Below, one piece after another: positions 29,240 to 58,967 of a stretch of DNA of 64,000 bases (the first letter of the stretch is position 1; every line of letters starts with the position of its first letter). The notes beneath the pieces are model-generated. The model saw only the letters and a list, made by a program, of their open reading frames with translations, had not been told where the DNA came from and ran no database searches. This DNA comes from Mobula hypostoma (Eukaryota): positions 2,480,001 to 2,544,000 of the forward strand of contig NC_086097.1 of NCBI RefSeq assembly GCF_963921235.1, read 5' to 3'. The position numbers were made by a program, and so were the translations under genes.

Positions 29240-31995
29240 AATCATGGCTGAAGGATGGTTGTAGTTGGGAGCTGAATGTCCAAGGTTACATGTTGTATCG
29301 GAGGGACAGGAAGGTCGGCAAAGGGGGTGGTAAAGAATGGCATCAAATCAGTAGAAAGATGTGACATAGAATCGCAAGATGTTGAATCCTTGTGGGTTGA
29401 ATTAAGAAACTGCAAGGGTAAAAGCACCCTGATGGCAGTTGTATACAGGCCTCCCAACAGTAGCTGGGATGTGTACTACAGATTCCAACGGGAAATAGAG
29501 AAGGTGTATCAAAAGGGCAATGTTATGATAGTCATGGCAGATTTCGACATGTGGGTCGATTGGGAAAATCAGGTTGGTAATGGATCTCAAGAGTGAGTTT
29601 GTTGAATGCCTACCAGTTGGCTTTTTAGAGCAGTTTGTTGTTGAGCTCACTAGGGGATCAGCTATACTGGACTGGGTGTTATATAATGAACCAGAGGTGA
29701 TTAGGGAGCTTAAGGTAAAAGAATCCTTAGGAACCAGTGATCACAATATGATTTGATAGGGAGAAAGTAAAGTCTGACATTTTTTCAGTAGAGTAAGGGA
29801 GTAAGTAAGTAGAGTAGAGGCAGTATTTCAGTGGAGTAAGGGAAATTACAGTGGTATGATAGAGGAGTTGGCCAAAGTAAATTGGAAGGAGCTGCTGGCA
29901 GGGATGTCAGCAAAGCAGCAATGGAGTGAGTTTCTGGGAAAAATGAGGAAGGTGCAGGACAGATGTATTCCAAAAATGAAGAAATACTCAAATGGCAAAA
30001 TAATACAACTGTGGCTGACAAGGGAAGTCAAAGCTAATGTAAAAACAAAAGAGAGAGCATACAACAAAGCAAAAATTAGTGCGAAGACAGAGGATTGGGA
30101 AGGTTTTAAAAACCTGTAGAGAGCAAGTAAAAGAAGGGAAAAGATGAAATATGAAAGCAAGCTAGCAAACAATATCAAAGTGGACAGTAAAAGCTGTTTC
30201 AATTATGTAAAAAAGTAAGAGAGATGAGAGTGAATACAGGACCACTAGACAATGAGGCCGCAGAAATAACAACAGTGGCAAAGATGATGGCAGATGAACT
30301 AAATGAGTATTTTATATCAGTCTTCACAGTGGAGGACACTAGCAGTGCATCAGATGTTGAAGGGTTTCAGGAAAGAGAAGTGAGTGCAGTTACTATTACA
30401 GAGGAGAAGGGGCTCAAAAAGCTGAAAGACCTAAGGGTACATAAATCACCCGGACCAGATGAACTGCACCATAGGGTTCTGAAAGAGATTGTGGAGGCAT
30501 TAGTAATGATCTTTCAAAAATCAGTGGACTCTGACATGGTGCTAGAGGACTGGAAAATTGCAAATGTCACTCCACTCTTTAAGAAAGGAGGAAGGCAGCA
30601 GAAAGAAAATTATAGACCAGTTAACCTGACCTCAGTGGTTGGGAAGATGATAGAATCAATCGTTAAGGATGAGGTGATGGAGTACTTGGTGACACAGGAC
30701 CAGATAGGACAAAGCCAGCATGGTTTCCTTCAGGGAAGATTCTGCCTGACGGACCTGTTGGAATTCTTCGTAGAGATTATATGTAGGATAGATAAAGGAG
30801 ATGTAGTGGATGTTATATATTTAGACTTTCAGAACGATTTTGACAATGTACCACACATGAGGCTGCTTACCAAGTTAAAAGCCCATGGTATTACAGGAAA
30901 GTTACTAACACGGTTAGAGCACTGTCTGATTGGTAGGAGGCAGCAAGTGGGAATAAAAGGATCCTTTTCTGGTTGGCTGCCAGTGATTAGTGATGTTCCA
31001 CAGGAATTGTTGTTGGGACCATTTCTTTTTATGCTGTATATCATTGATTTAGATGATGGAATAGATGGCATTATTGCCAAGTTTGCAGATGATACAAAGA
31101 TTTGTGGAGGGGCAGGTAGAGTTGAGGAAACAGGTAGGCTGCAGATGGACTTAGGCAGATTAAGAAAAAGGTTAAGAAAGTGGTAAATGAAATACAATGT
31201 TGGAAAATGCGTGCTCATGCACTTTGGTAGTAGAAATAAATGTGCAGATTATTTTCTAAATGGAGAAAATCCAAAAATATGAAATGCAAAGGCACTTGGG
31301 AGTCCTTGTGCAGAACAATCTAAAGGATAACTTGCAGGTTGAGTCGGTGGTGAGGAAGGCAAGTGCTATGTTAGCATTCATCCCAAGAAGTCTAGAATAC
31401 AAAACCAGCAATGTGATGCTGAGGCACTGGTGAGGCCTCACCTTGACTATTGTGAACAGTTTTGGGCTCCTCATCTGACAAAAGATGTGCTAGCATTGGA
31501 GAGGGTCCAGAGATGGTTCATAAGGATGATTCTGAGAATGAAAGGGTTATCATACAAGGAACATTTGATGGTTCTGGGTCTGTACTTGCTGGAATTTAGA
31601 AGGATGAGGGGGAATCTCATTGAAACTTTTTGAATGTTGAAAGGCCTAGAGAGAGTGAGTATGGAAAGGATGTTTCCCATGGTGGGGGAGTCTAGGACAA
31701 GAGGGCACAGCCTCAGGATGGAGGGTCATCCATTTAAAACAGAGATGTGGAAAAATTTATCAAGCCAGAGAGTGGTGAATTTGTGGAATTTATTACCACA
31801 GGCAGAGGTGGAGGCCAGGTCGTTGGGTGTACTTAATGCTGAGCTTGATAGGTTCTTGATTGGACATGGCATCATTCCTGGGAGAAGGCTGGGAATAGTC
31901 TTGAGGAAGGGAAAAGGGATCAGCCATGATGGAATGGTGGAGCAGACTCAATGGGCCAACTGGCCAAATCTTGCTGCTATGTATTATAGTCTTAT
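29240..31995 (+). mobile_element. CR1 LINE ORF2 (APE plus RT), decayed
   Basis: ORF 30224-31186 (320 aa of RT: KSPGPDELH, YLDFQNDFD, AKFADDTK), upstream VYRPPNS and SDHN motifs, CR1 3' tail. Confidence 0.93.
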
Positions 31996-33674
31996 GATCT
32001 ATTCTTCCACATAAACACTGACATGAATCTTATTTGACTGGTTAGTTATAGGGAGCTTTACAACCAAAATTATTCCCATGCTTAATCAATGGATTCATAA
32101 AAGATGAAGCAAAATTCTAGTCCTGATTGATTTCAAAGTTCAAATGTCCAAAATAAAATTTTATCAACATACATAGATGTCATTTTCTTGAAGGCATTCA
32201 TAATAAATACAAACAAACAATAGAATCAATGGAAAACCTCACTCGACAGAAATGGACAAACATCCAGTGTGTAAAAGATAACAAACTGTAAATATAAAAA
32301 AGGGAAAAATAACAATCAATAAATAAATAAACAAACAAACAAACAAGCAAGCAAGCACGAGTTATAGAGTCCTTAAAAGTGAGTCCATAGGTTGTGGATT
32401 CATTTCAGTTTTGGGGTGAGTGAAGTTACCCCCTCTGTTCAAGACCCTGATGGATGAGGAGTAATAACTGTTCCTGACCTGGTGATGTGGATCCTGAGGC
32501 AATGATGCCTCCTTCCTGATGGCAGAAGCCAGAAGGGAGCATGACCTGGATGGTGGAGGTTCCTGATGATGGATGCTGTTTTCCTGTGATGTCGCTCCAT
32601 GTAAACGTGCTCAACGGTTGGGAGGGCCTTATCTGTCATGGACTGGGTCTGCCCCATCAGTGAGCCACTTTGTGATCGGAGTAGCCAGCCAGTGTTTTGG
32701 TGGAGCCAGCTGGCGTGTCGGAGGAGCAGGACTGGATTTTGGAGGAGCTGCCCGCTACCCTAAGGGATCGGAGTGGATGCACGAAGGTGGTGAGCAGTGT
32801 AACCGTGGGTGATTGACTTGGACATCTCTCTTGCAATGTAAGATGCTGCAAGCCTGTTTCCCTTGTTTGGTGGTATGACAGGTGGCAGGGAAGCTGTGCA
32901 GCCTTGGTTATAGCGAACCGTGGGTTTGCCTGCTGGTGCAGTCCAGCAGGAGAGAAGCCGAAGGCAGCACAGAGTGGTGTCTGTGCTCGGCTGGGGGCGA
33001 GCCGCTCCCATCGCTGCTGCCCTCCAGTGTTCGATCGGTGAATTGCCAGGAACTACCATCAATGTGCGGGACACGTCTGTGAGGTTTCTTTTTGCTTGCT
33101 ATTTTGAAAGTGCTGCATATATTTTGCACCTTGGCTCCAGAGAATGCTGTTTTGTTCAGCTGTACCCATGTATGGTTGAATGATAATTATATTTGGCATG
33201 ATTTTGATTTTTTTGATTTGATTTACTACTTTCTGTATCTAACAAAATAGCTTAACGCTCGGTATAAACACCCAGCTTGACATTTTCCTGTAATATATAG
33301 TCTAATTTAGCACTGCACAGATTTCTCTGTAGACAATGGTACTCCAGCTTTTCTCAAATTTGGCTCCTTGTATATTTTGAAAAATAAAACAGAACATTTA
33401 GTGCATGGAATGAAAGATCAAGCTGGATGGATTTCCATCCTCGTATTGGGATACCACTGTTTGTTGGATGCATTAAAGACTTGGAGGATATTGTAGTGAA
33501 ATAAGATCACATACAAGAACAATGTCACAGTGGATTGTACACTGGCATTATCCTGTCACCTCTTACACCTGAATTCAAAGTAGAAACTCATTTCAAATGA
33601 GAGCAATGAGGCAAGTTAAAAGGTTTTAGTCATGGATTTATCAGATAGAAAAGAAAGTTGATGACTTTTCATTG

Positions 33675-34185
33675 TCGTAGAAAAGTACAGCATAGGAACA
33701 GGCCCTTTGACCCATGCTGAAACAATTTAAACTCTCTACTCCCATCGACCTGCACCAGGACCATAGCCCTCCATACCCCTACTATCAATGTACCTAAGCA
33801 AACTTCCCTTAAAAGTTGAAACTGAGCTCACACACACCACTTGTGCTGGCAGCTCACTCCACGCTCTGAGAGAAGTTGTTTCCCGTCATGTTCCTCATAA
33901 ATTTCTCACCTTTCATCTTCAACCCATGACCTCAAGTTATAGTGCCACCCAAACACAGTGGAAAAAGGCTGCTTGCATTTACCCTATCTATACCCCTCAT
34001 AATTTTGTATACCTCCAACAAATCTCCTCTCAATCTTCTATGTTCCAAGGAATAAAGTCCTAACTCAGTCCATCTTTCCTTATAACTCAGGTCCTTCAGT
34101 CCCAGCACCATCCTGTAATTTTCCCTGTACTCTTTCAACCTTATTTACATCTTTTCTGTAGGTAGCTGACCAAAACTGCACACAA
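33675..34185 (-). mobile_element. CR1 3' fragment (continues at ~37780-37830 after nested insertions)
   Basis: ORF 33932-34138: LYSLEHRRLRGDLLEVYKIMRG. Confidence 0.82.
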
Positions 34186-34344
34186 ATCAAATCAAATCAA
34201 ATTCAATTATCATTCAAATCATACGTGGACACAGCTGAGAGATACACCATTCCTCTGGGGCCACAGTGCAAAACATTCAAATTAGCAAGCAAACATTCAA
34301 AAATAGCAATTAACATAATTCAGAGTTACAAAATACACATGGAC

Positions 34345-35672
34345 TAAGATGTTAACTGTCCTGTGCTATCACCAGTGGGATCATCAGTTGATCTGCCACC
34401 TGTCTTCAGGAGTTTCGGCCCGCTTATGATCAAGACTCCCTCGAGGTGGTGGGCCAGCAGTGCTAAAGCACCTCCTCCCACTGGTGAGCTTAAAAACTTG
34501 GCATCTGCCTCTATCAGAGTTGTTGGTCACTTCCACCCAACAGATAGTCTACTCTTCAGGTGTCTATGCAACTACTGAAGGGTTTGCAAGATATGTATAC
34601 ACTGTCTGACTATCTGCCCCTCTGGACATACTTGGTCCACACCCATGCTGATCCTGTCTCTGCTGCCTCAGCTACAGCCCTGCTGGTTGACTTGATCTCT
34701 CTTCTAGTGAAGCTAAGGTCACACAGCCACTTCTGGAGAGTGAACGCGATAAACTCACGGCACCCTACTTCGAATGGATAGCATGAGACCTTCCACCCTC
34801 TGTCTCTGCACTCTGATCTTAACTCTGCATATTTGGTTAACTTGCGCTCATGGGCTTCATCGATGTTGTCTTCCCAGGGGATTGTGAGTTCACCAATAAC
34901 CGCTTCTCTACTGGTGTCAGACCATACGATTATATCTGGTTGCTGTGTAGGCTTTGTTTTCTTCAACTCAACCAAACCAAACCCGTACTTTCCAACATCG
35001 TAAATCATATCGCCCATCACTTCCAACTTTCTCTTTGATGTTCCCCTGAGCGTGTTCTCCAACATCATACTGATATCCTCATCAAATACACGCCAAGCCT
35101 TCTCATCTGCCATTGCTGGCCACTTGACCTTCCTCTTCTTCTCTACCTCCTCGCCACTGCCATCATGCCAAGAATCTACCTGGGTACTGTGGTCTGAAAC
35201 CTGACCTGGGTTATCTCTCGTCTGACCTGGAGTATGATCACTCTCTCCAGAGTAAATCGCTGTGGCTTGTGAATCAGTGGTTGAAAAGACCACATCATCT
35301 GTGCTTGGTGAAGTAATCTCATCTTCATCCACTGGGATGGAATAGCACTTCGACTTTGCTTGATGGACTCGCAAACCTTTAATGCTGGAAAACGCTCTCC
35401 CACACCAACACACTGGACACTGAGAACCTCTTATCCTAGCTCTTGGTCATAGTCGTTCCCTGTAATTAACTGTATCCGTCCGATTGGGTCCATCATTCTC
35501 CCTCCCTCTCGGAGGACCCCGAGGGTATGTTTCTCGGTGTAAACTAGAAGCTTCAAGAGGTGGGTGCTCTTCTGAGCTGGTGCCCGGACTGCCAATCCCG
35601 ACACCCCCGGTGCCAGTCTTTCCTGGCTGTCCGCTGTCTCTCCACGCTGTCACCCGACTATTCCTGGTTGCC
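34345..35672 (-). mobile_element. HERO-clade (R2-like, REL endonuclease) non-LTR retrotransposon, RT internally deleted
   Basis: ORF 34610-35413: CWCGRAFSSIKGLRVHQAKSKC zinc finger and KVKWP...W..FDED region joined directly to PDIIVWS...ELTIPWE...AHERKLTKY...PFEVGCR (PD-(D/E)xK REL nuclease); upstream in-frame segment 35447-35674 separated by one TGA. Confidence 0.85.
34369..34487 (-). ncRNA. Non-circularly permuted (pseudoknotted) hammerhead ribozyme candidate in the HERO 3' UTR
   Basis: Core CUGAUGA (34387-34381), GAAA (34416-34413), GUC (34436-34434); helices UUGAUC/GAUCAA, GGCCC/GGGCC, GGAGU/ACUCC, CCACCU/AGGUGG and 12-bp UCACCAGUGGGA/UCCCACUGGUGA all perfectly complementary. Confidence 0.8.
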
Positions 35673-35674
35673 AA

Positions 35675-36870
35675 AATACTTTATACTTTATTGTCGCCAA
35701 ACAATTGATACCAGAATGTACAATCATCACAGCGATATTTGATTCTGCGCTTCCCGCTCCCTGGATTACAAATCAATAGTAAATATTAAAAATTTAAATT
35801 ATAAATCATAAATAGAAAATAGAAAAAACAGAAAGTAAGGTAGTGCAAAAAAACTGACAGGCAGGTCCGTATATTTGGAGGCTACGGCCCAGATCCGGGT
35901 CAGGATCCGTTCAGCAGTCTTATCACAGTTGGAAAGAAGCTGTTCCCAAATCTGGCCGCACGAGTCTTCAAGCTCCTGAGCCTTCTCCCGGAGGGAAGAA
36001 TGATGAAAAATGTGTTGGCTGGGTGGGTCGTGTCCTTGATTATCCTGGTAGCACTGCTCCAACAGCGTGCGGTGTAAAGTGAGTCCAAGGACGGAAGATT
36101 GGTTTGTGTGATGTGCTGCGCCATGTTCACGATCTTCTGCAGCTTCTTTCGGTCTTGGACAGGACAACTTCCATACCAGGTTGTGATGCACCCTAGAAGA
36201 ATGCTTTCTACAGTGTGTCTATAAAAATTAGTTAGGGTTTTAGGGGACAGGCCAAATTTCTTTAGTTTTCTCAGGAAGTAAAGGCGCTGGTGGGCCTTCT
36301 TGGCAGTGGACTTTGCTTAGTCGGACCAAGTCAGGTCATTTGTGATATTGACCCCGAGGAACTTAAAGCTTTTGACCTGTTCCACTTGCACACCACCAAT
36401 GTAAATTGGGTCGTGCAGTCCGCTACTTCTTCTGAAGTCAACAACCAATTCCTTCGTCTTGCTGACGTTGAGGGATAGGTTATTGCCTTCGCACCATGCC
36501 ACCAGATTCTTAATTTCCTCTCTGTACTCAAACTCATCATTACCCAAGATATGGCCTACAATTGTTGTGTCATCAGCAAACTTATATATTTGAGTTCGAT
36601 GGAAACTTGGCTACAAAATCATGGGTGTGTAGTGAGTACAGCAGGGGGCTGAGTACACAGCCTTGTGGGACACCGGTGCTCAGAGTGATTGTAGAGGAGA
36701 GCTTGTCCCCTATTTTTGCAGCCTGGGTCCTGTCTGTGAGGAAGTTGAAGATCCAGCTGCAGATCTGAGTGCTAAGGCCCAGGTTCTGGAGCTTAGGAAT
36801 CAGTTTATTTGGAATGATGGTATTAAAGGCAGAGCTGTAGTCAATGAAAAGGAGCCTTACGTATGCGTAA
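35675..36870 (-). mobile_element. Rex1/Babar LINE, 5'-truncated RT to 3' tail
   Basis: [18 protein letters not shown]...[44 protein letters not shown]...NSFFPTVIRLLN; tail AATAAAGTATAAAGTA. Confidence 0.92.
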
Positions 36871-38119
36871 GCAAACGTAATAGCAAGCAAAGAAGCACAT
36901 TTACTTGAAAAGAAAACCTGCATGCAGCCCAAGTACACTGAGTGACAATGTCCAGCAGACAAAGTTGGTCTCCCGGCAGTATACAACGCACGCAATCCAG
37001 CCTGTCTTTCCACCGCTCAAATGTGGGAAGGCAGCACTGACAGGAGAGGCCAGGCCCCCGATCAGTTCAGACGCCAAGTCTCTCACCTGCTGCAGCAACA
37101 GGCAAGCCTGATGCTTGAGGCCTAGTTCTCACTACAACTAACACTAGAAACCTCCCATGTCTCCTACCCCTCCAGCAGACAAGGGAATCAGGCCTGTGAG
37201 AACTTGCATTTTATCACTGTCCAACAGAGTCTTGTGATCTCAAGTGAAATGTCTGAGACAATCTCCCACAGTTATATTGCACCAACTCCAATGCTTCCAA
37301 GTAGTGGGCGGCAACATGGTCTGCAGTCAGCTCAGCTCCTCCGAACCCAAACCAGCTCCTCCGATATCCCGACAGGCTCCTCCGATATTCTGGTGGGTTC
37401 CTCCATATCCTGACTGGCTCTTCTGGTATCCTGACCAGCTCCTTCTCCACCATGCCAGCCTCAGCCAGCCCATTCCACACCTCGGCTGGCTCTCTCTCCA
37501 ACATCACGGCCGGCCCTTCAACACCTCGGCCAGCTCTCCCTCTATCGTCATAGCAAGCCCCTTTGACACCTCGACCGCTCTGCTGCCAACACCAGTCCAA
37601 CTACTCCGATCAACGAGCAGCTCACTGATGGAGTGGCCCTGTAGTGCTCAATGTCCTTGGAGTAGAATTGTCTTTGGATCATAAAAAAGCAAATTTTACA
37701 GAGGGAAAATCATCTTTGGTTGGCCCCCGAAAGGCTGCTGTTTTTACACACGCCACCATCTTACTGGAAGTTGGGATCTAATATTCCACCTCACCAACGT
37801 TTTATACAGCGTCATTCTGTATTTGATTCTATATGTATTGATAAGCAGTTCGACACTCTACAGTTGAAAAGACTGGAACTTAGCAAAGAAAAATTTTAAA
37901 AAGAGGTGCTTCAAGAAAGGAAATTTTTAAAAACTGGTCATAAACTGAAGAGGTTCTGAGGATCCTGGAAAGTCATAAAAAAACAACAGCACAGAAACAG
38001 GCCCTTTGGCCCATCTCGTCCGTGCCTAGCCCCATTTACTCTGAGGAAATCTCAGGCAACTCGCACAGAGTGCTGGAGGAACTCTGCAGGTCAAGCAGCG
38101 TCAATGGAAATGAACGGGT

Positions 38120-38660
38120 CGAGACCCGAGGCCGGCGGACAGAAGTTTACGATGCTGTGCTGTAGTCTCTGTGGGTGGGAGGCCCTCTGGTCCCAGGCAC
38201 GGCGCCGTCACCCTGGCAACCACCCGGATGTGGGCGTCCAGAACCCGGAAGCGGATTTGCTTGTGACTCGTCAGCCGGTGGAGACGGAGCGGGCCGCTCG
38301 GCCATCGAGTGAAGTTAGAGTCGCCGCTGCCGTACCTTCTCCAGTGAGGTGAGGCCGAGGCCGGGGCCGGGGCTTGGGTTTGAGCTTGGCACCGGCACCA
38401 GGGGGCGAGGCTCAGAGCTGGAACTCGGGGCCAGAGCGAAGCTCGGCCGGGGTTGGTGCTCCGCGGCTCGGCTTGACGACGGGGAGGCGGAGGTCGGGGC
38501 TGCCCGCGGTTGGGAACCGGTCTCGGGGAGCGAGGTTCGGGGCCCAAGGCCGGGGCTGGAGTCAGTGAAGCCTGCTACTGGGGCTCGGAGCTGGGCGGCC
38601 GGGGGCTCGGGTAGAGGTGACCCGAGGGTTTCGCTGGCAGCTTCGCCTGGGAGCTGAGAG
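38120..38660 (+). promoter_or_regulatory. LYSET: CpG island / LYSET promoter and probable exon 1 (donor at 38348/38349)
   Basis: CpG-rich; RFX X-box GTCACCCTGGCAAC (38207-38220), ETS-type CCGGATGT and CCGGAAGC sites; donor GAG|GTGAGG followed by G-rich intron sequence; nearest CpG island upstream of the LYSET coding exon. Confidence 0.75.
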
Positions 38661-38999
38661 CGGATTCAAGATTGTTTAATTTCATTTCCAGTGCACAGCT
38701 GTAAAAGAGGATGAAATAATTGTTACTCCAGATCTGATGCATCACAAAAGAAAACACAATAACCTTTTTAAAAACAATGAATGTAAAAGATGGCTTATAT
38801 AGAATAATCGATGAAATGACAGGAGATAGAGTGCCTGTACGTAAATTAACTGACAGGAAATGATAAAGTAGTGGTCGGGTAAGGTGAGTTAGTGGGTGGA
38901 TGTGCTGATCAGCCTTAACTGATTTCTGCAAAATGTTGGGGGTTGTGGCTTTTCAGATTTATTTAGTCATAGTCATACTTTATTCATCCTGGGGGAAAT

Positions 39000-40487
39000 T
39001 GTAGGCCATTTGGCCCATTGACCCTGCATCCCCATTCAATCATAGGCTGATCCAATTCTTCCAGTCAACCCCACTCCACGGCCTTCACCCAATACCCTCT
39101 GATGCCCTGGCTAATCAAGAACCTATCTATCTCTTGCCTTAAATGCACCCAATGACTTGGGCTCCACAGCCACTAGTGGCAACAAGTTCCACAGATTTAC
39201 CACTGACTAAAGTAATTTCTCCGCATCTCTGTTCTAAAAGGACGTCCTACAATCCTGAAGTCGTGCCCTCTTGTCCTAGAAACCCCTACCATGGGAAATA
39301 ACTTTGCCATATCTAATCTGTTCAGGCATTTTAACATTGGGACTGTTTCTATGAGATCCCCTCTCATTCTGAACTCCAGGGAATACAGCCCAAGAGCTGC
39401 CAGATGTTCCTCATACGGTATCCCTTTCATTCCTGGAATCATTCTCGTGAATCTTCTCTGAACCCTCTCCAATGTCAGTATATCCTTTCTAAAATAAGGA
39501 GCCCAAAACTGCACACAATACTCCGTGTGTGGTCTCACGAGTGGCTTATAGAGCCTCAACATCACATCCCTGCTCTTATATTCTATTCCTCTAGAAATGA
39601 ATACCAACGTTGCATTTGCCTTCTTCACAACCGACTCAACCTGAGGGTTAACCTTTACGGTATCCTGCACAAGCACTCCCAAGTCCCTTTGCATCGCTGC
39701 ATTTTGAATTCTCTCCCCATCTAAATAAAAGTCTGCCCGTTTATTTCTTCCACCAAAGTGTATGACCGTACACTTTCCAACATTTTATTTCATTTGCCAC
39801 TTCTTTGCCCATTCCCCTAAACCAGTGGTCCCCAACCTCTGGGCCACGAAACATGCAGGGGTACAGCGGTAGCCGGAGCGCACCCAGCACATCTTTAAGA
39901 GAAAAGCCGAAATAAACAAGCTAATTAATTAGATGCCGCCCAGAAGCCAGTCTTCATTAGAGGAACTGAGGTGGAGAAGGTCAATAACTTTAAATTCTTC
40001 GGCATTAAGGATTGACGTTTCTCTCTCTGAAAAGTGTCAGAGGATCTGTCCTGGGACCAGCATGGCAGCACCTATACTTTATTAGAAGTTTGTGTAGATT
40101 CAACATGTCACCTTGATCCTGACAGCCCTGTCTTTTCAGCCTGTCTGGGCTGGCATTTAAATTGACCAAACAATGGAACAGCTAAAGGCTCCAGCGCCCT
40201 GGAAAGAGGAGTGAACATCCCGTCGAGCAAGTGAAATCGGCAATCGCCTCTTATCTGGGCCGACATTTACCTGTCAGGTGGCACCTAATTAATTAACTTG
40301 TTTATTTCGGCTTTTTTCTTAAACATGTGCTGGGTGCGCTCCAGCTACTGCTGCACCACTGCATGCTTCACGGCCCGGAGGTTGGGGACCACTGCCCTAA
40401 ACTGTCTAAGAGTCTCTCTGCAGGTTCTATTTCCTCAACACTGCCCGCTCCTCCACCTATCTTTGTATCATCGGCAAATTTAGCCAG
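39000..40487 (-). mobile_element. CR1 3' portion, interrupted by a hAT MITE
   Basis: ORF 39197-39694: LVRPHTEYCVQFWAP...LERVQRRFTRMIPGM; resumes at 40403 (KFADDTK region). Confidence 0.9.
39823..40394. mobile_element. hAT-superfamily MITE with long (~120-bp) imperfect inverted termini
   Basis: TIR CAGTGGTCCCCAACCTC / GAGGTTGGGGACCACTG; 8-bp TSD CCCTAAAC at 39815-39822 and 40395-40402. Confidence 0.9.
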
Positions 40488-55254: not shown

Positions 55255-57075
55255 CTAAAAGATTTTTTAAGTATATAAAGAGTAAAAGAGGGTTGAGGGT
55301 AGAGAGAAGGACCAATAGAAAATGACGCTGGAGATATTGTAATGAGAGACGCAGAGATGACAGAGGAACTGAATGCGTATTTTACATCAGTCTTCACTGT
55401 GGAAGACAGTTGCAGTATCCTGAACATTCAAGAGTGTCAGGGAAGTGAAGTTTGTGCAGTGAAAATTACGACTGAGAAGGTGCTCAGGAAGCTTAATGGT
55501 CTGAGGGTGGATAAATCTCCTGGACCTGATGGAATGCACCCTCGGGTTCTGAAGGAAGTAGCTGGAGAGATTGCGGAGGCATTAACAATGATCCTTCAAG
55601 AATCGATAGATTCTGGCATTGTACTGGATGACTGGAAAGTTGCAAGTGTTACTCCACTATTTAAGAAGGGTGGGAGGCAGCAGAAAGGAAACTATAGACC
55701 TGTTAACCTGACATCAGTGGTTGAGAAGTTGTTGGAATTGATTGTTAGGGATGAGATTATGGAGTGCCTGAAGGCACATGACAGGATAGGCCAAAACCAG
55801 CATGGTTTCCTGAAAGGAAAATCCTGCCTGACAAACCTACTGTAATTCTTTGAGGAAATTACGAGCAGGGTAGACAAAGGAGATGCAGTAGATGTGGTGT
55901 ACTTGGATTTTCAGAAGGCCTTTGACAAGGTGCCGCACATGAGGTTGCTTAGCAAGATAAGAGCCCATGGAATTACAAGGAAGTTACTAGTGTGGGTGGA
56001 GCATTGGCTGATCGGCAGGAAACAGAGAGTGGGAATCAAGGGATCCTATTCTGACTGGCTGCCGGTTACCAGTGGAGTTCCACAGGGATAGGTGTTGGGA
56101 GCACTGCTTTTTACGATGTATGTCAATGATTTGGACTATGGGATTAATGAATTTGTAGCTAATTTTGCCGATGATACAAAGGTAGGTGGAGGAGCGGGTA
56201 GTGTTGAGGAAACAAAGAGCCTGCAGAAAGACTTAGGTAGTTTAGGGGAATGGGCAAAGAAGTGGCAAATGAAATACAATGTTAGAAAGTCATGCACTTT
56301 GGTGGAAGAAATAAATGGTTGGACTATTATTTAGATGGGGAGAGAATTCAAAATGCAGAGATGCAAAGGGACTTGGGAGTCCTTGTGCAAGATACCCTAA
56401 AGTTGAGTCGGTAGTGAAGAAGGCAAATGCAATGTTGGCATTCATTTCTAGAGGTATAGAATGTAAGAGCAGGGATGTGATGTTGAGGCTCTATAAGGCA
56501 CTCGTGAGACCACACTTGGAGTATTGTATACAGTTTTGGGATCCTTATTTTAGAAAGGATATACTGATATTGGAGAGGGTTCAGAGAAGAGTCATGAGAA
56601 TGATTCCAGGAATGAAAGGGTTACCGTATGAGGAACGTCTGGCAGCTCTTGGGCTGTATTCCCTGGAGTTCAGGAGAATGAGGGGGGATCTCATAGAAAC
56701 ATTCTGAATGTTAAAAGGCCTGAACAGATTAGATATGGCAAAGTTGTTTCCCATGGTAGGGGATTCTAGGACAAGAGGGCATGATTTTAGGATTGAAGGG
56801 CATCCATTTAGAACTGAAATGTGGAGAAATTACTTTCATCAGAGTGTGGTAAATCTGTGGAACTTGTTGTCATGGGTGACTGTGGAGGCCAAGTCACTGG
56901 GTGTATTTAAGGCAGATGTAGATAGATTCTTGATTAGCCAGGGCATCAAAGGGTATGGGGTGAAAGCAGGGGAGTGGGGATGACTGGAGAAATTGGATCA
57001 GCCCGTGATTGAATGGCAGAGCAGACTCGATGGGCCGAATGGCCTACTTCTGCTGCTATACCTTATGGTCTTATT
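55255..57075 (+). mobile_element. CR1 ORF2 RT plus 3' tail
   Basis: ORFs 55342-55845, 55894-56091, 56092-56334 (ANFADDTK), 56315-56983. Confidence 0.93.
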
Positions 57076-58164
57076 GCCTTATGAACTCTGACCTCCAATG
57101 CCCGAGCTGTAATAGCACTGTGCTAACTGCCATGCTACCAAGCTGCCCTTTATCAACTGGTAGCTCTTCCACAGCAGATCTCTAACATTATCAACAATGT
57201 AAGAAATATAGAGAATTTCAAAAACAATCAGCAGGTCAGCATCTGTGGAAAGTGAAAGAAAGGTAATATTTCAGATCAAAGGCTCTTCAGGACGGGTGAA
57301 GAGAGAGACCATGCTAGTGTAATTTGGAGAGCCAGTGGGAGAGGATTAGATAGGTCGGTGGGATGGGGATATGACGTGGGGAGTTCATCCAGTTGCTGCC
57401 TTGATGGGAACAGATAAAATGTGCAAAGTGACAAGTTGAGGGAAGTCTGAGGGTGAGGACAGGAAGATACAGACACTGATTCGAGATACAGCGTAGAACA
57501 GGCCCTTCCACCAAGAAGCACCGCTTAGTAACATCCCATTTAACCCGAGCCTAATCAAGCACTATTTACAATGACCAATTAACCTACTAAACAGAACATT
57601 TTTGGTCTGTGGGAAGAAACCAGAGTGCCTGGACGAAACCTACATGGTCAAAGGGAGAATGTACAGGGTCCTTACGGGTAGCTCCAGACTTGGATTCCAA
57701 ACTCTGAAATGCCCTGAGCTGTAATGGCCCAGTACTAACCTCTATGTCACCAACTCCAGGGCTGCTGGACAATCCTGGCAGCTCAGGCTATGTGGATGGA
57801 ACTGGAAAAGGGTTATTATTGCATAAAGTACAAGGTCACGACGAGGTAGATTGTGAGGTCAAGAGTCCACCTTATCGTACCAGGGAACCATTAAAGAGTC
57901 CTGTAACAGCGGAGTGGCGTACAAGTTGTACGCTTTAAGGCTTTTGAAACTGACTCGAAGAGCCAGAAGGGCCTTTTCCATGCTTTATCTCAACGAGTAA
58001 AAAATAAATATGCTTTCTATTGCATATCAGCAAAAATTAGTAAGGGTCAACAGGTCATGCCAATTTTCTTTACCCTCCTGAAGTCTGCTTTCATTACAGT
58101 GATGTCAATGTGGTTGAACTGGGACAGGCTATCAATGATGTTCACGTCTGGGAAATAACTGTGC

Positions 58165-58967
58165 ACACTGTTTTCTAAATGGGGAGAAAATTCAAAAATC
58201 TGAGATGCAAAGGGACTTGGGAGTCCTTGGACAGGACACCCCAAAGGTTAACTTGCAGGTCGAGTCGGTGGAAGGCAAATGCCATGTTAGCATTCATTTC
58301 AAGAAGACTAGAATACAAGAGCAGGGATGTGATGCTGAGGCTTTATAAGACGCTGGTGAGGTCTCACCTTGAGTATTGTGAACAGTTTTGGGCTCCTCAT
58401 CTTAGAAAAGGTGTGCTGGCATTGGAGAGGGTCCAGAGGAGGTTCACAAGGATGATTCCAGGAATGAAAGAGTTATCATATGAGGAATGTTTGATGGCTC
58501 TTGGTCTGTACTCACTGGAATTCAGTAGGCTGAGGGAGGATCTCATTGAAACCTTTTGAATATTGAAAGGCCTAGACAGAGTAGATGTGGAAAGGATGTT
58601 TCCCATGGTGGGAGAGTCTAGACAAGAGGGCACAGCCTCAGGATAGAGGAGTGTCCATTTAAAACAGAGATGCGGAGAAAATTCTTTAGCCAGAGGGTGG
58701 TGAATTTGGTGAATTTGTGGAATTTGTTGCCACATGCAGCTGTGGAGGCCAGGTCATTGGGTGTATTTAAGGCAGAGATTGATAAGTTCTTGATCGGACA
58801 TGGCATCAAAGGTTACGGGGAGAAGATCGGGAACTAGGGTTGAGGAAGAGAAGAATAAAAGGAACGGCCATGATTGAATGGCGGAGCAGACTCAATGGGC
58901 CCAGTTCCTGGCCTTCTCCCCGTAACCTTTGATGCCATGTCCAATCAAGAATTTATTAATCTCTGCC
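58165..58967 (+). mobile_element. CR1 3' fragment with a terminal inverted duplication
   Basis: ORF 58179-58559; 58900-58967 is the reverse complement of ~58771-58839. Confidence 0.87.

Follow-up and report, generated by a model that had tools for sequence, protein, structure and literature searches.

A conserved RNA domain with a hammerhead core split at A9/G10.1, close to the 3′ end of HERO-like retrotransposons: a putative self-cleaving RNA with a new order of strands

On the minus strand of a 64,000-nucleotide (nt) stretch of the Mobula hypostoma genome (contig NC_086097.1, positions 2,480,001 to 2,544,000; hereafter the window, numbered from its first base), positions 34487 to 34369 carry the conserved words of a hammerhead ribozyme in an order of strands that none of the classical types uses. 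They lie in the 3′ untranslated region (UTR) of a HERO-like retrotransposon that encodes a restriction-like endonuclease (RLE), and the locus raises the question of whether these 119 bases are a ribozyme, a hammerhead-shaped RNA with another use, a member of a class of permuted hammerheads already published, or an accident of a GC-rich repeat. We propose that the best explanation is a conserved RNA domain built on a complete hammerhead core in a new strand order, with a putative self-cleavage that would leave a latent nick, and we hold this explanation with moderate confidence.

The helices of the window copy were checked pair by pair by script against the minus strand of 34487-34369, and the helix and core positions given by the initial annotation of this DNA proved correct base for base (Table 1). 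The domain opens with the 5′ strand of a closing helix and a junction hairpin, which are followed by the stem II strand that starts at G10.1, the first strand of an additional helix (helix E), an N-G-A element, stem III, U16.1-H17 and stem I; a linker then leads to the stem II strand that ends at C11.1, GAAA, stem III, an NNN-GA-N element, helix E, stem I and CUGANGA, and the 3′ strand of the closing helix completes the domain. Stem III pairs GGAGU (34439-35) with ACUCC (34413-09), the A15.1-U16.1 pair included, and a sixth pair, G.U (34440/34408), is possible. The polarity of the strands is that of a hammerhead at every junction but one, where A9 leads into the closing helix and not into G10.1. 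The closing helix was itself considered as stem II and ruled out, as its partner strand has no following GAAA. The scripted anatomy thus agrees with the annotation that the fold is pseudoknotted, follows none of the orders I, II or III and opens the chain between A9 and G10.1; all invariant hammerhead nucleotides are present in the window copy as it had stated, and the core is kept in relatives.

The relatives studied here are the best 80 metagenome loci of 275 confirmed (598 pattern matches), obtained from an alignment of ten endonuclease domains. A strict descriptor, which demands CUGANGA, C-GAAA, stems I and III of no fewer than 4 base pairs (bp) each, stem I being preceded by U-H, and a stem II strand lying upstream, matched 40/80 loci, all of them on the coding strand and mostly 3-160 nt past the stop codon. 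A covariance model of the core that holds only helices E and III (model R1) found 65/80 loci at E ≤ 1 and 62/80 at E ≤ 0.015, the window copy scoring 66.3 bits; the sole minus-strand row was weak (E = 0.35). Fifteen of the 80 loci gave no match to this model, and ten of these have at most 143 nt after the open reading frame (ORF), while L014, L016, L043, L061 and L068 extend 275-2991 nt past the ORF yet lack the domain by the same model. MAFFT failed to register the closing helix across all members, and the register was solved by a full-domain covariance model (model R2: closing helix, hairpin, E and III) built from an 18-sequence seed, which matched 61 loci at E ≤ 0.01 and the window at 34373-34483 (73.6 bits). 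These 119 bases are one copy of an RNA domain of ~110-125 nt that is conserved near the 3′ end of related retrotransposons from many organisms.

The helices covary in these relatives. When the full pseudoknotted structure was laid on a structure-blind MAFFT alignment of the core, 87.7% of cells were paired against 64.2% in shuffled alignments (0/500 as high; best slid control 51.7%). The corresponding values were 92.3% against 63.8% for the 65 distinct rows of the R1 alignment (0/500; best slid control 47%) and 93.4% against 60.1% for the 60 distinct rows of the R2 alignment (0/500; best slid control 42%), where the covariation score was 0.770 versus 0.202 shuffled. Stems I and II form no part of model R1 or model R2; they were 95.9% and 93.4/91.8% paired in the R1 alignment, with 10-32 double changes per pair, and 92.1% and 93.0/89.5% paired in the R2 alignment. 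Stem III was 94.4% paired in the R1 alignment with many double changes. The R2 alignment gave 92.9% for the inner 8 pairs of the closing helix, with changes on both sides at 8/8 of them, 88.7-96.6% for the hairpin, 95.9% for helix E and 97.8% for stem III, and compensatory changes occur in all eight helix segments. The comparisons free of fitting are those of stems I and II in the R1 and R2 alignments and the closing-helix offset test described below, in rows that still include descriptor-picked seeds. The comparison of relatives shows that the fold is under selection. Each helix that the annotation proposed is backed by the comparative data of the MAFFT, R1 and R2 alignments; the relatives also carry the domain downstream of the RLE ORF, in keeping with its placement in the 3′ UTR of an RLE retrotransposon.

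The nucleotides that do not vary are those that a hammerhead requires. In the 21 rows found only by model R1, U4, G5, A6, A9, A13, A14, U16.1 and G10.1 are each present in 21/21, and C3 is changed to U in 4/21. N7 is free (U, C or A), and position 17 is U, A or C, with G in 0/62 rows. The tertiary position 3/8 varies within one subgroup, being C3-G8 in L035, L036 and L046, U3.G8 in L009 and L010, and U3-A8 in L054 and L066, the last two with all five helices intact. This succession of C3-G8, U3.G8 and U3-A8 reads as a compensatory path in a tertiary pair special to the active hammerhead fold, and as the loci are mutually related it counts as about one evolutionary event. The C3-G8 pair has been described before, together with its rescue by a double mutant (PMC11167929). 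As judged from the aligned relatives, the pattern of conserved nucleotides is demonstrably that of a hammerhead.

The strand order is best described in the terms of Eckert et al. (2023, PMC10085705), who divide the hammerhead into block C (stem I strand-CUGANGA-stem II strand), block G (stem II-GAAA-stem III) and block S (stem III-H17-stem I) and assume that blocks are never interrupted. The natural orders they give are SGC, CSG and perhaps GCS, block C is contiguous in all six strand-order types defined, and their article text counts no known hammerhead with more than 1-2 bases inserted between A9 and stem II. In the present domain blocks S and G are intact and in order, whereas block C is split and its stem II strand stands 5′ of S; nearly all members have a 7-15-bp helix and a hairpin in the interruption, so that the closing helix (median 10 bp) and the hairpin intervene between A9 and G10.1. 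The domain resembles types SGC (HRIMA-1) and CSG of that paper in its core, in the order of S then G, in the short linker (0-8 nt) between stems I and II, in the extra helix, here helix E, that ties the other sides of these two stems, and in having two core pseudoknots. It differs in that its chain begins and ends within block C, where a long helix and a hairpin close it off as a four-way junction, whereas the ends of type SGC are those that a k-turn-like loop joins here; it also differs in its host, an animal long interspersed nuclear element (LINE), which carries it in the 3′ UTR, as against the metatranscriptomes and virus-like circular RNAs of the SGC examples (PMC10085705). Seen in this way, the domain is a circular permutation of type SGC, a ring whose natural ends are joined by an apparent k-turn and which is reopened inside block C, at A9/G10.1. 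A true type-SGC arrangement, with a stem II strand directly after CUGANGA, was considered and rejected: the 7 loci concerned show 3-4-bp matches at offset +1, which we take as chance, and none of them lacks the upstream strand.

The break between A9 and G10.1 is bridged by the closing helix, which begins immediately after A9 (offset 0) with a median of 10 perfect bp against 4 at control offsets, and a closing helix of at least 7 bp at offset 0 or 1 is present in 42/60 rows compared with 43/472 controls. The 16-29 nt between its 5′ strand and G10.1 form a single hairpin that uses nearly all bases, and a four-way junction without spare bases, made up of the core, the closing helix, this hairpin and stem II, is present in 34 of the 58 assessable rows. 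The contigs of four sequencing runs, aligned to 34100-34700 at ≥80% likeness, read another base than the window at 34473 at ~100% depth, the family having U and the window copy A. The A is thus a private change of the window copy, and with the family's U the junction hairpin is 8 bp long and the four-way junction lacks spare bases, as in the relatives. In L035, L036, L009, L010, L054, L066, L060 and L076 the best closing helix lies 10-21 nt past A9 or is weak at offset 0, and the junction is therefore not always perfect. The loop of the junction hairpin is UUUA in the window copy and is often the palindrome (U)UGAUCA(C) in relatives (e.g. L017, L025, L044, L048, L056, L065 and L074); such a loop could form a kissing-loop dimer or a tertiary contact.

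The internal loop between stem III and helix E recalls a kink-turn (k-turn), a motif that sets a three-base bulge and tandem G.A/A.G pairs between two helices, so that one strand has the bulge and then G-A and the opposite strand reads N-G-A. N-G-A faces NNN-G-A-N in the domain, with both strands of the pattern in 38/62 rows and CGA and GAAGAC in the window copy; the likeness, a matter of sequence pattern alone, would make stem III the C stem and helix E the NC stem. A divergent subgroup (L004, L007 and L008) keeps the core, the stems and helix E, lacks the NNN-GA bulge and has instead a 5-7-nt bulge on the other strand. A sharp kink in this loop would allow helix E to turn back from the distal side of stem III towards the far ends of stems I and II, which helix E and the short linker hold together. 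For type SGC, a helix from the stem III side that reaches stems I and II has been flagged as a geometric problem (PMC10085705).

Table 1. Features of the retrotransposon copy and its RNA domain, in window coordinates
Feature	Position	Strand	Remarks
RLE-type (HERO-like) non-long-terminal-repeat retrotransposon, internally deleted, high-copy	34330..35446	(-)	3′ end 34330, extends at least to 35446; tblastn, contig ends
ORF remnant, 278 amino acids: C2H2 zinc finger, N-terminal segment, C-terminal PD..E..K restriction-like endonuclease	34610..35446	(-)	
Closing helix, 5′ strand, UCACCAGUGGGA	34476..34487	(-)	12/12 Watson-Crick pairs with 34380-69
Junction hairpin between closing helix and G10.1, GUGC-UUUA-GCAC in the window copy	34456..34475	(-)	
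Stem II strand GGCCC, begins with G10.1	34451..34455	(-)	pairs with 34421-17
Helix E, 5′ strand CCACCU; ties distal ends of stems I and II	34444..34449	(-)	
CGA, non-bulged strand (N-G-A) of the k-turn-like internal loop	34441..34443	(-)	NGA in 39/62 rows
Stem III strand GGGAGU, ends at U16.1	34435..34440	(-)	
C17	34434	(-)	predicted scissile bond 34434|34433, placed by analogy with the hammerhead core
Stem I strand UUGAUC	34428..34433	(-)	
Linker AUAAGC, stem I directly to stem II	34422..34427	(-)	0-8 nt in relatives
Stem II strand GGGCC, ends at C11.1 (G10.1-C11.1 pair)	34417..34421	(-)	
G12 A13 A14 A15.1 (GAAA)	34413..34416	(-)	
Stem III strand CUCCU, after A15.1	34408..34412	(-)	
GAAGAC, bulged strand (NNN-GA-N) of the k-turn-like loop	34402..34407	(-)	NNNGAN in 46/62 rows
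Helix E, 3′ strand AGGUGG	34396..34401	(-)	
Stem I strand GAUCAA	34388..34393	(-)	
C3-A9 (CUGAUGA)	34381..34387	(-)	
Closing helix, 3′ strand, immediately after A9	34369..34380	(-)	
Terminal hairpin and short tail (GCA...UGUAU...), end of element	34330..34368	(-)	

The domain shares with hammerheads of types I, II and III the conserved core nucleotides, a position 17 that is not G, a free N7, three stems of correct polarity and the C3-G8 pair. Unlike them it is undrawable without pseudoknots, has four helices at the stem II side and is detected by no Rfam model. Ribozymes like that of hepatitis delta virus (HDV), which R2 and other LINEs carry at their 5′ end, free the element RNA from the co-transcript. 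The domain would likewise be a double-pseudoknotted self-cleaving RNA in the transcript of an RLE-type LINE, if its cleavage follows the hammerhead analogy; the R2 ribozymes are of another class and are located at the 5′ end. The available text of a 2026 review of R2 elements (PMC13580325) mentions only the 5′ ribozyme. The hammerheads of Penelope-like elements and retrozymes (PMC4209133, PMC7229834, PMC11167929) are also borne by retroelements, often in arrays, and their role in mobility is uncertain; they are minimal or type I and, in Penelope-like elements, lie in the pseudo-long terminal repeats of elements with a GIY-YIG endonuclease, whereas the present domain is large, knotted, single-copy and placed at the 3′ end of an RLE LINE. 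The helix-bridged break, the four-way junction and the k-turn-like loop are new relative to PMC10085705. In the literature covered, which leaves out most subscription journals and the supplements of PMC10085705 with the SGC alignments, we found no hammerhead in the 3′ UTR of an RLE or HERO LINE and none with an interrupted block C.

The element that carries the domain encodes a single ORF with a C-terminal RLE, whose PD..E..K motif is present in the window ORF and in 10 aligned relatives. Full-length relatives are ~1000-1100 amino acids long and contain a reverse transcriptase (RT) domain, RVT_1; the window ORF matches them only over their first ~80 and last ~125 residues (in tblastn, residues 2-81 of the full-length relative P0002 align to 35146-34886 and residues 881-1005 to 34987-34613). 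As the window ORF aligns only to the two ends, this copy has lost the RT through an internal deletion. Among protein relatives with named hosts are those of Branchiostoma belcheri, Hemitrygon akajei (83% over 59 residues) and Amphiura filiformis, and this set of hosts is compatible with the label HERO-like; the HERO clade itself is delimited by RT phylogeny with Repbase references (PMC7650587, PMC4640811). One further relative, P0011 (1574 amino acids), has a Ulp1-type protease domain (PF02902) N-terminal of RT. A protease of this type ahead of RT is an arrangement of NeSL-type elements. No second copy of the domain or of the element was found in the 64-kb window by self-BLAST, and models R1 and R2 match only the 34369-34487 site. 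An RVT_1 fragment at 36582-37016 and an ALKBH8_N-like piece at 35900-36316 were considered as parts of the element and rejected, P0002 having no match there at E ≤ 1e-3; both are frameshifted minus-strand pieces of other LINEs, directly upstream of the element. Elsewhere in the window, and unrelated to the domain, there are a 118-bp inverted repeat pair of 89% identity (39823-39940 / 40277-40394) and a repeat of ~0.8 kb in several copies of 74-87% identity (39001-39822 versus 56240-57047, 58152-58901 and 31178-31965).

In the relatives the closing helix is followed by a small hairpin, GCAG...CUGUAU, with TGTAT 15-80 nt after A9 in 28/56 rows versus 1 control segment. Family mates diverge 10-15 nt beyond this terminal hairpin, and the elements therefore stop at that point, with no poly(A); the hairpin is a candidate start site for reverse transcription. 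At 10/29 of the loci with at least 900 nt downstream, the N-terminal domain of a next copy lies 550-940 nt downstream on the same strand, and L070 holds two full copies head to tail. Such arrays are seen in L070 (3300-4100) and also in L009, L018, L023, L051, L054, L062, L069, L076 and L077. In arrays the 3′ end of one copy abuts the next 5′ UTR, which opens with repeated small hairpins, CCUGG-GAAA-CCAG-UGAC.

The same 3′ end can be placed in sequencing data, where twenty rows from 12 studies, with organisms coded A-G, contain parts of 34200-35000. The family is very abundant, with a word depth of ~1e5 in several species. Since contig pieces and loose ends begin at 34330, the element has its 3′ end there, 39 nt past the closing helix and ~104 nt downstream of the proposed cut. 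Few variants are listed inside 34369-34487: all four runs differ at 34473, a single run differs at the linker position 34426, there are changes at the base of the closing helix (34368/69), and one run has two indels. Among the variants listed, the upstream 3′ UTR (34510-34607) shows fixed differences in the four runs, with many in run X9, against almost none in 34369-34487. In organism A the depth jumps at ~34414, threefold in the DNA run X1 (353k versus 108k) and more than tenfold in the putative RNA run X13 (3809 versus 272); one consensus is common to the loose ends at 34412, and variants at 34368/34369 make up 27-57% of the depth. From the shared consensus and the depth jump it follows that organism A has a second, more abundant family, in which no more of the element is present than its last ~83 nt (34412 to 34330), from just after GAAA. 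It looks like a SINE-like (short interspersed nuclear element) or chimeric partner that uses the LINE tail. The tenfold drop of X13 at ~34414 was considered as a cleavage signal and rejected, as it is not at the cut site and coincides with the loose ends of this second family. A short fragment of another repeat, one that is extremely abundant, lies at 34117-34185, with a word depth of up to 6e5 in two DNA runs and loose contig ends at both sides, at 34117 and 34185.

We propose the following model for the domain in the transcript of its element. By analogy with the hammerhead core, the RNA likely self-cleaves after C17, between 34434 and 34433. The two products would be held together by ~28 pairs (12 in the closing helix, 5 in stem II, 5-6 in stem III and 6 in helix E), with stem I wholly in the 3′ product, and because of these pairs the nick would be latent and probably reversible by re-ligation. 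A nick that can be re-ligated would account for the presence of both flanks of the site in DNA copies, and it is consistent with there being no pile-up that starts at 34433. Genomic copies indeed retain both sides of the predicted cut site, as the annotation had noted for the sequence downstream of it, and the 3′-end processing of transcripts that it had proposed does not fit: the cut lies well inside 34330, neither side of it is missing from the copies, and the depth does not change at 34434/33. A more speculative role is that read-through or tandem-array transcripts are cut to unit lengths whose ends rebuild the domain, rather than trimmed at the 3′ end. Cleavage may also be gated by protein, as for the hammerhead of a Penelope-like element that cleaved only with protein present (PMC11167929).

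Several explanations compete with this model, and the simplest is a chance assembly of hammerhead words in a GC-rich hairpin of a repeat. The descriptor has exactly one match on both strands of the 64-kb window, the 34369-34487 site, and on both strands of 20 shuffles of 239 kb it has 0 matches in 19 rounds and 2 overlapping ones in one, so that ~0.01-0.03 matches per window would be expected by chance, or ~1 site per 10 Mb of shuffled sequence. Such a match is rare yet not negligible across a very large scan, as this one was, and the evidence of the relatives is decisive: the same architecture recurs in 62/80 independently fetched relatives, with its location and strand unchanged and with compensatory changes in all eight helix segments, which refutes chance and leaves it a next to negligible probability. 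Nested folding adds little, the window copy having a minimum free energy of -48.2 kcal/mol (z = -2.69; 1/200 shuffles as good), and such a mild excess is expected for a pseudoknotted fold. That the domain is an ordinary member of the published type-SGC (or CSG) hammerheads would account for its S-then-G order, its short I-II linker and the helix that ties the other sides; block C, however, is contiguous in all six defined types and is here split by a 7-15-bp helix and hairpin, the published examples come from metatranscriptomes and agents resembling circular RNAs and not from LINE 3′ UTRs, and no family of Rfam 15 matches the domain. In these Rfam scans no hammerhead or other ribozyme, HDV-like ones included, was found at E ≤ 10 in window 30000-40000, and 20 loci gave no relevant match at E ≤ 1; that the hammerhead models of Rfam fail on the domain is expected for a pseudoknotted strand order. 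We consider membership of a published type very improbable.

A different use for the same fold deserves more weight. The domain could be a hammerhead-shaped scaffold for protein recognition, on which the RT/endonuclease or a host k-turn-binding protein starts target-primed reverse transcription, with cleavage absent, suppressed or incidental. RLE elements are recognised by their own protein at the 3′ end, for which the 3′ UTR pseudoknot of R2 elements is an example (PMC12222951). The domain lies 35-50 nt from the 3′ end of the element, in this zone of protein recognition; both sides of the cut site are always kept in genomic copies, the putative RNA run has a contig that reads across it, and the Penelope-like hammerhead is dispensable for insertion in vitro (PMC11167929). 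A scaffold, however, would not need a position 17 free of G (0/62), N7 as the one free core position or the change from C3-G8 through U.G to U-A, the conserved core pattern matches that of catalytic hammerheads, and a second high-copy family with only the last ~83 nt is still amplified, which argues that the whole fold is not required for copying. We regard the scaffold as a serious alternative, although an unlikely one. Some of these observations also count against our own proposal of a self-cleaving RNA, together with others. No depth step at 34434/33 and no excess of copies starting at 34433 was seen in the contigs of the four runs, which cannot show RNA ends, or in the depth of DNA runs, and X13, which is guessed to be an RNA run, has a 177-nt contig that crosses the cut site intact. 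The tail-only family indicates that the whole domain is apparently not needed for copying and that amplification in trans can do without the ribozyme; similarly, the hammerhead of the Penelope-like element was not needed for insertion in vitro (PMC11167929). The break at A9/G10.1 has no described precedent, and the domain could for this reason be slow or inactive. The descriptor that supplied the seeds of both covariance models already requires the core and stems I-III, and the R2 alignment was fitted to its model for the closing helix, hairpin, E and III. Finally, C11.1 is changed in 6/21 (four to U) and G12 to A in 4/21 of the rows found only by model R1; as both positions sit in CpG, these changes look like CpG decay of dead copies.

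A bolder form of our model would make the domain an active hammerhead of a seventh strand order, its block C divided by a four-way junction, braced by a k-turn and latently nicked, by which array RNA is cut to units and ligated into circles, so that an autonomous LINE would have a circular stage like that of a retrozyme; we think this distinctly doubtful. Under this circular-RNA reading the domain would possibly be native to a whole clade of animal LINEs, with the element's own protein or a host k-turn-binding protein as the switch.

The domain breaks the assumption behind the three classic and the three recent strand orders, namely that no block is ever interrupted, and the family in which this occurs is large and offers ample natural variation. 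If it cleaves, the hammerhead core can accommodate a helical junction at its A9/G10.1 step, and a k-turn and a four-way junction join the known ways of bracing a hammerhead. Descriptor and covariance-model searches would then be blind to a ribozyme class present in possibly very many copies in animal genomes. Furthermore, RLE-type LINEs would have a 3′ ribozyme beside the 5′ HDV-like ribozymes of R2, and the role of ribozymes for retrotransposons is made directly testable with a short RNA (120 nt) and clear mutants.

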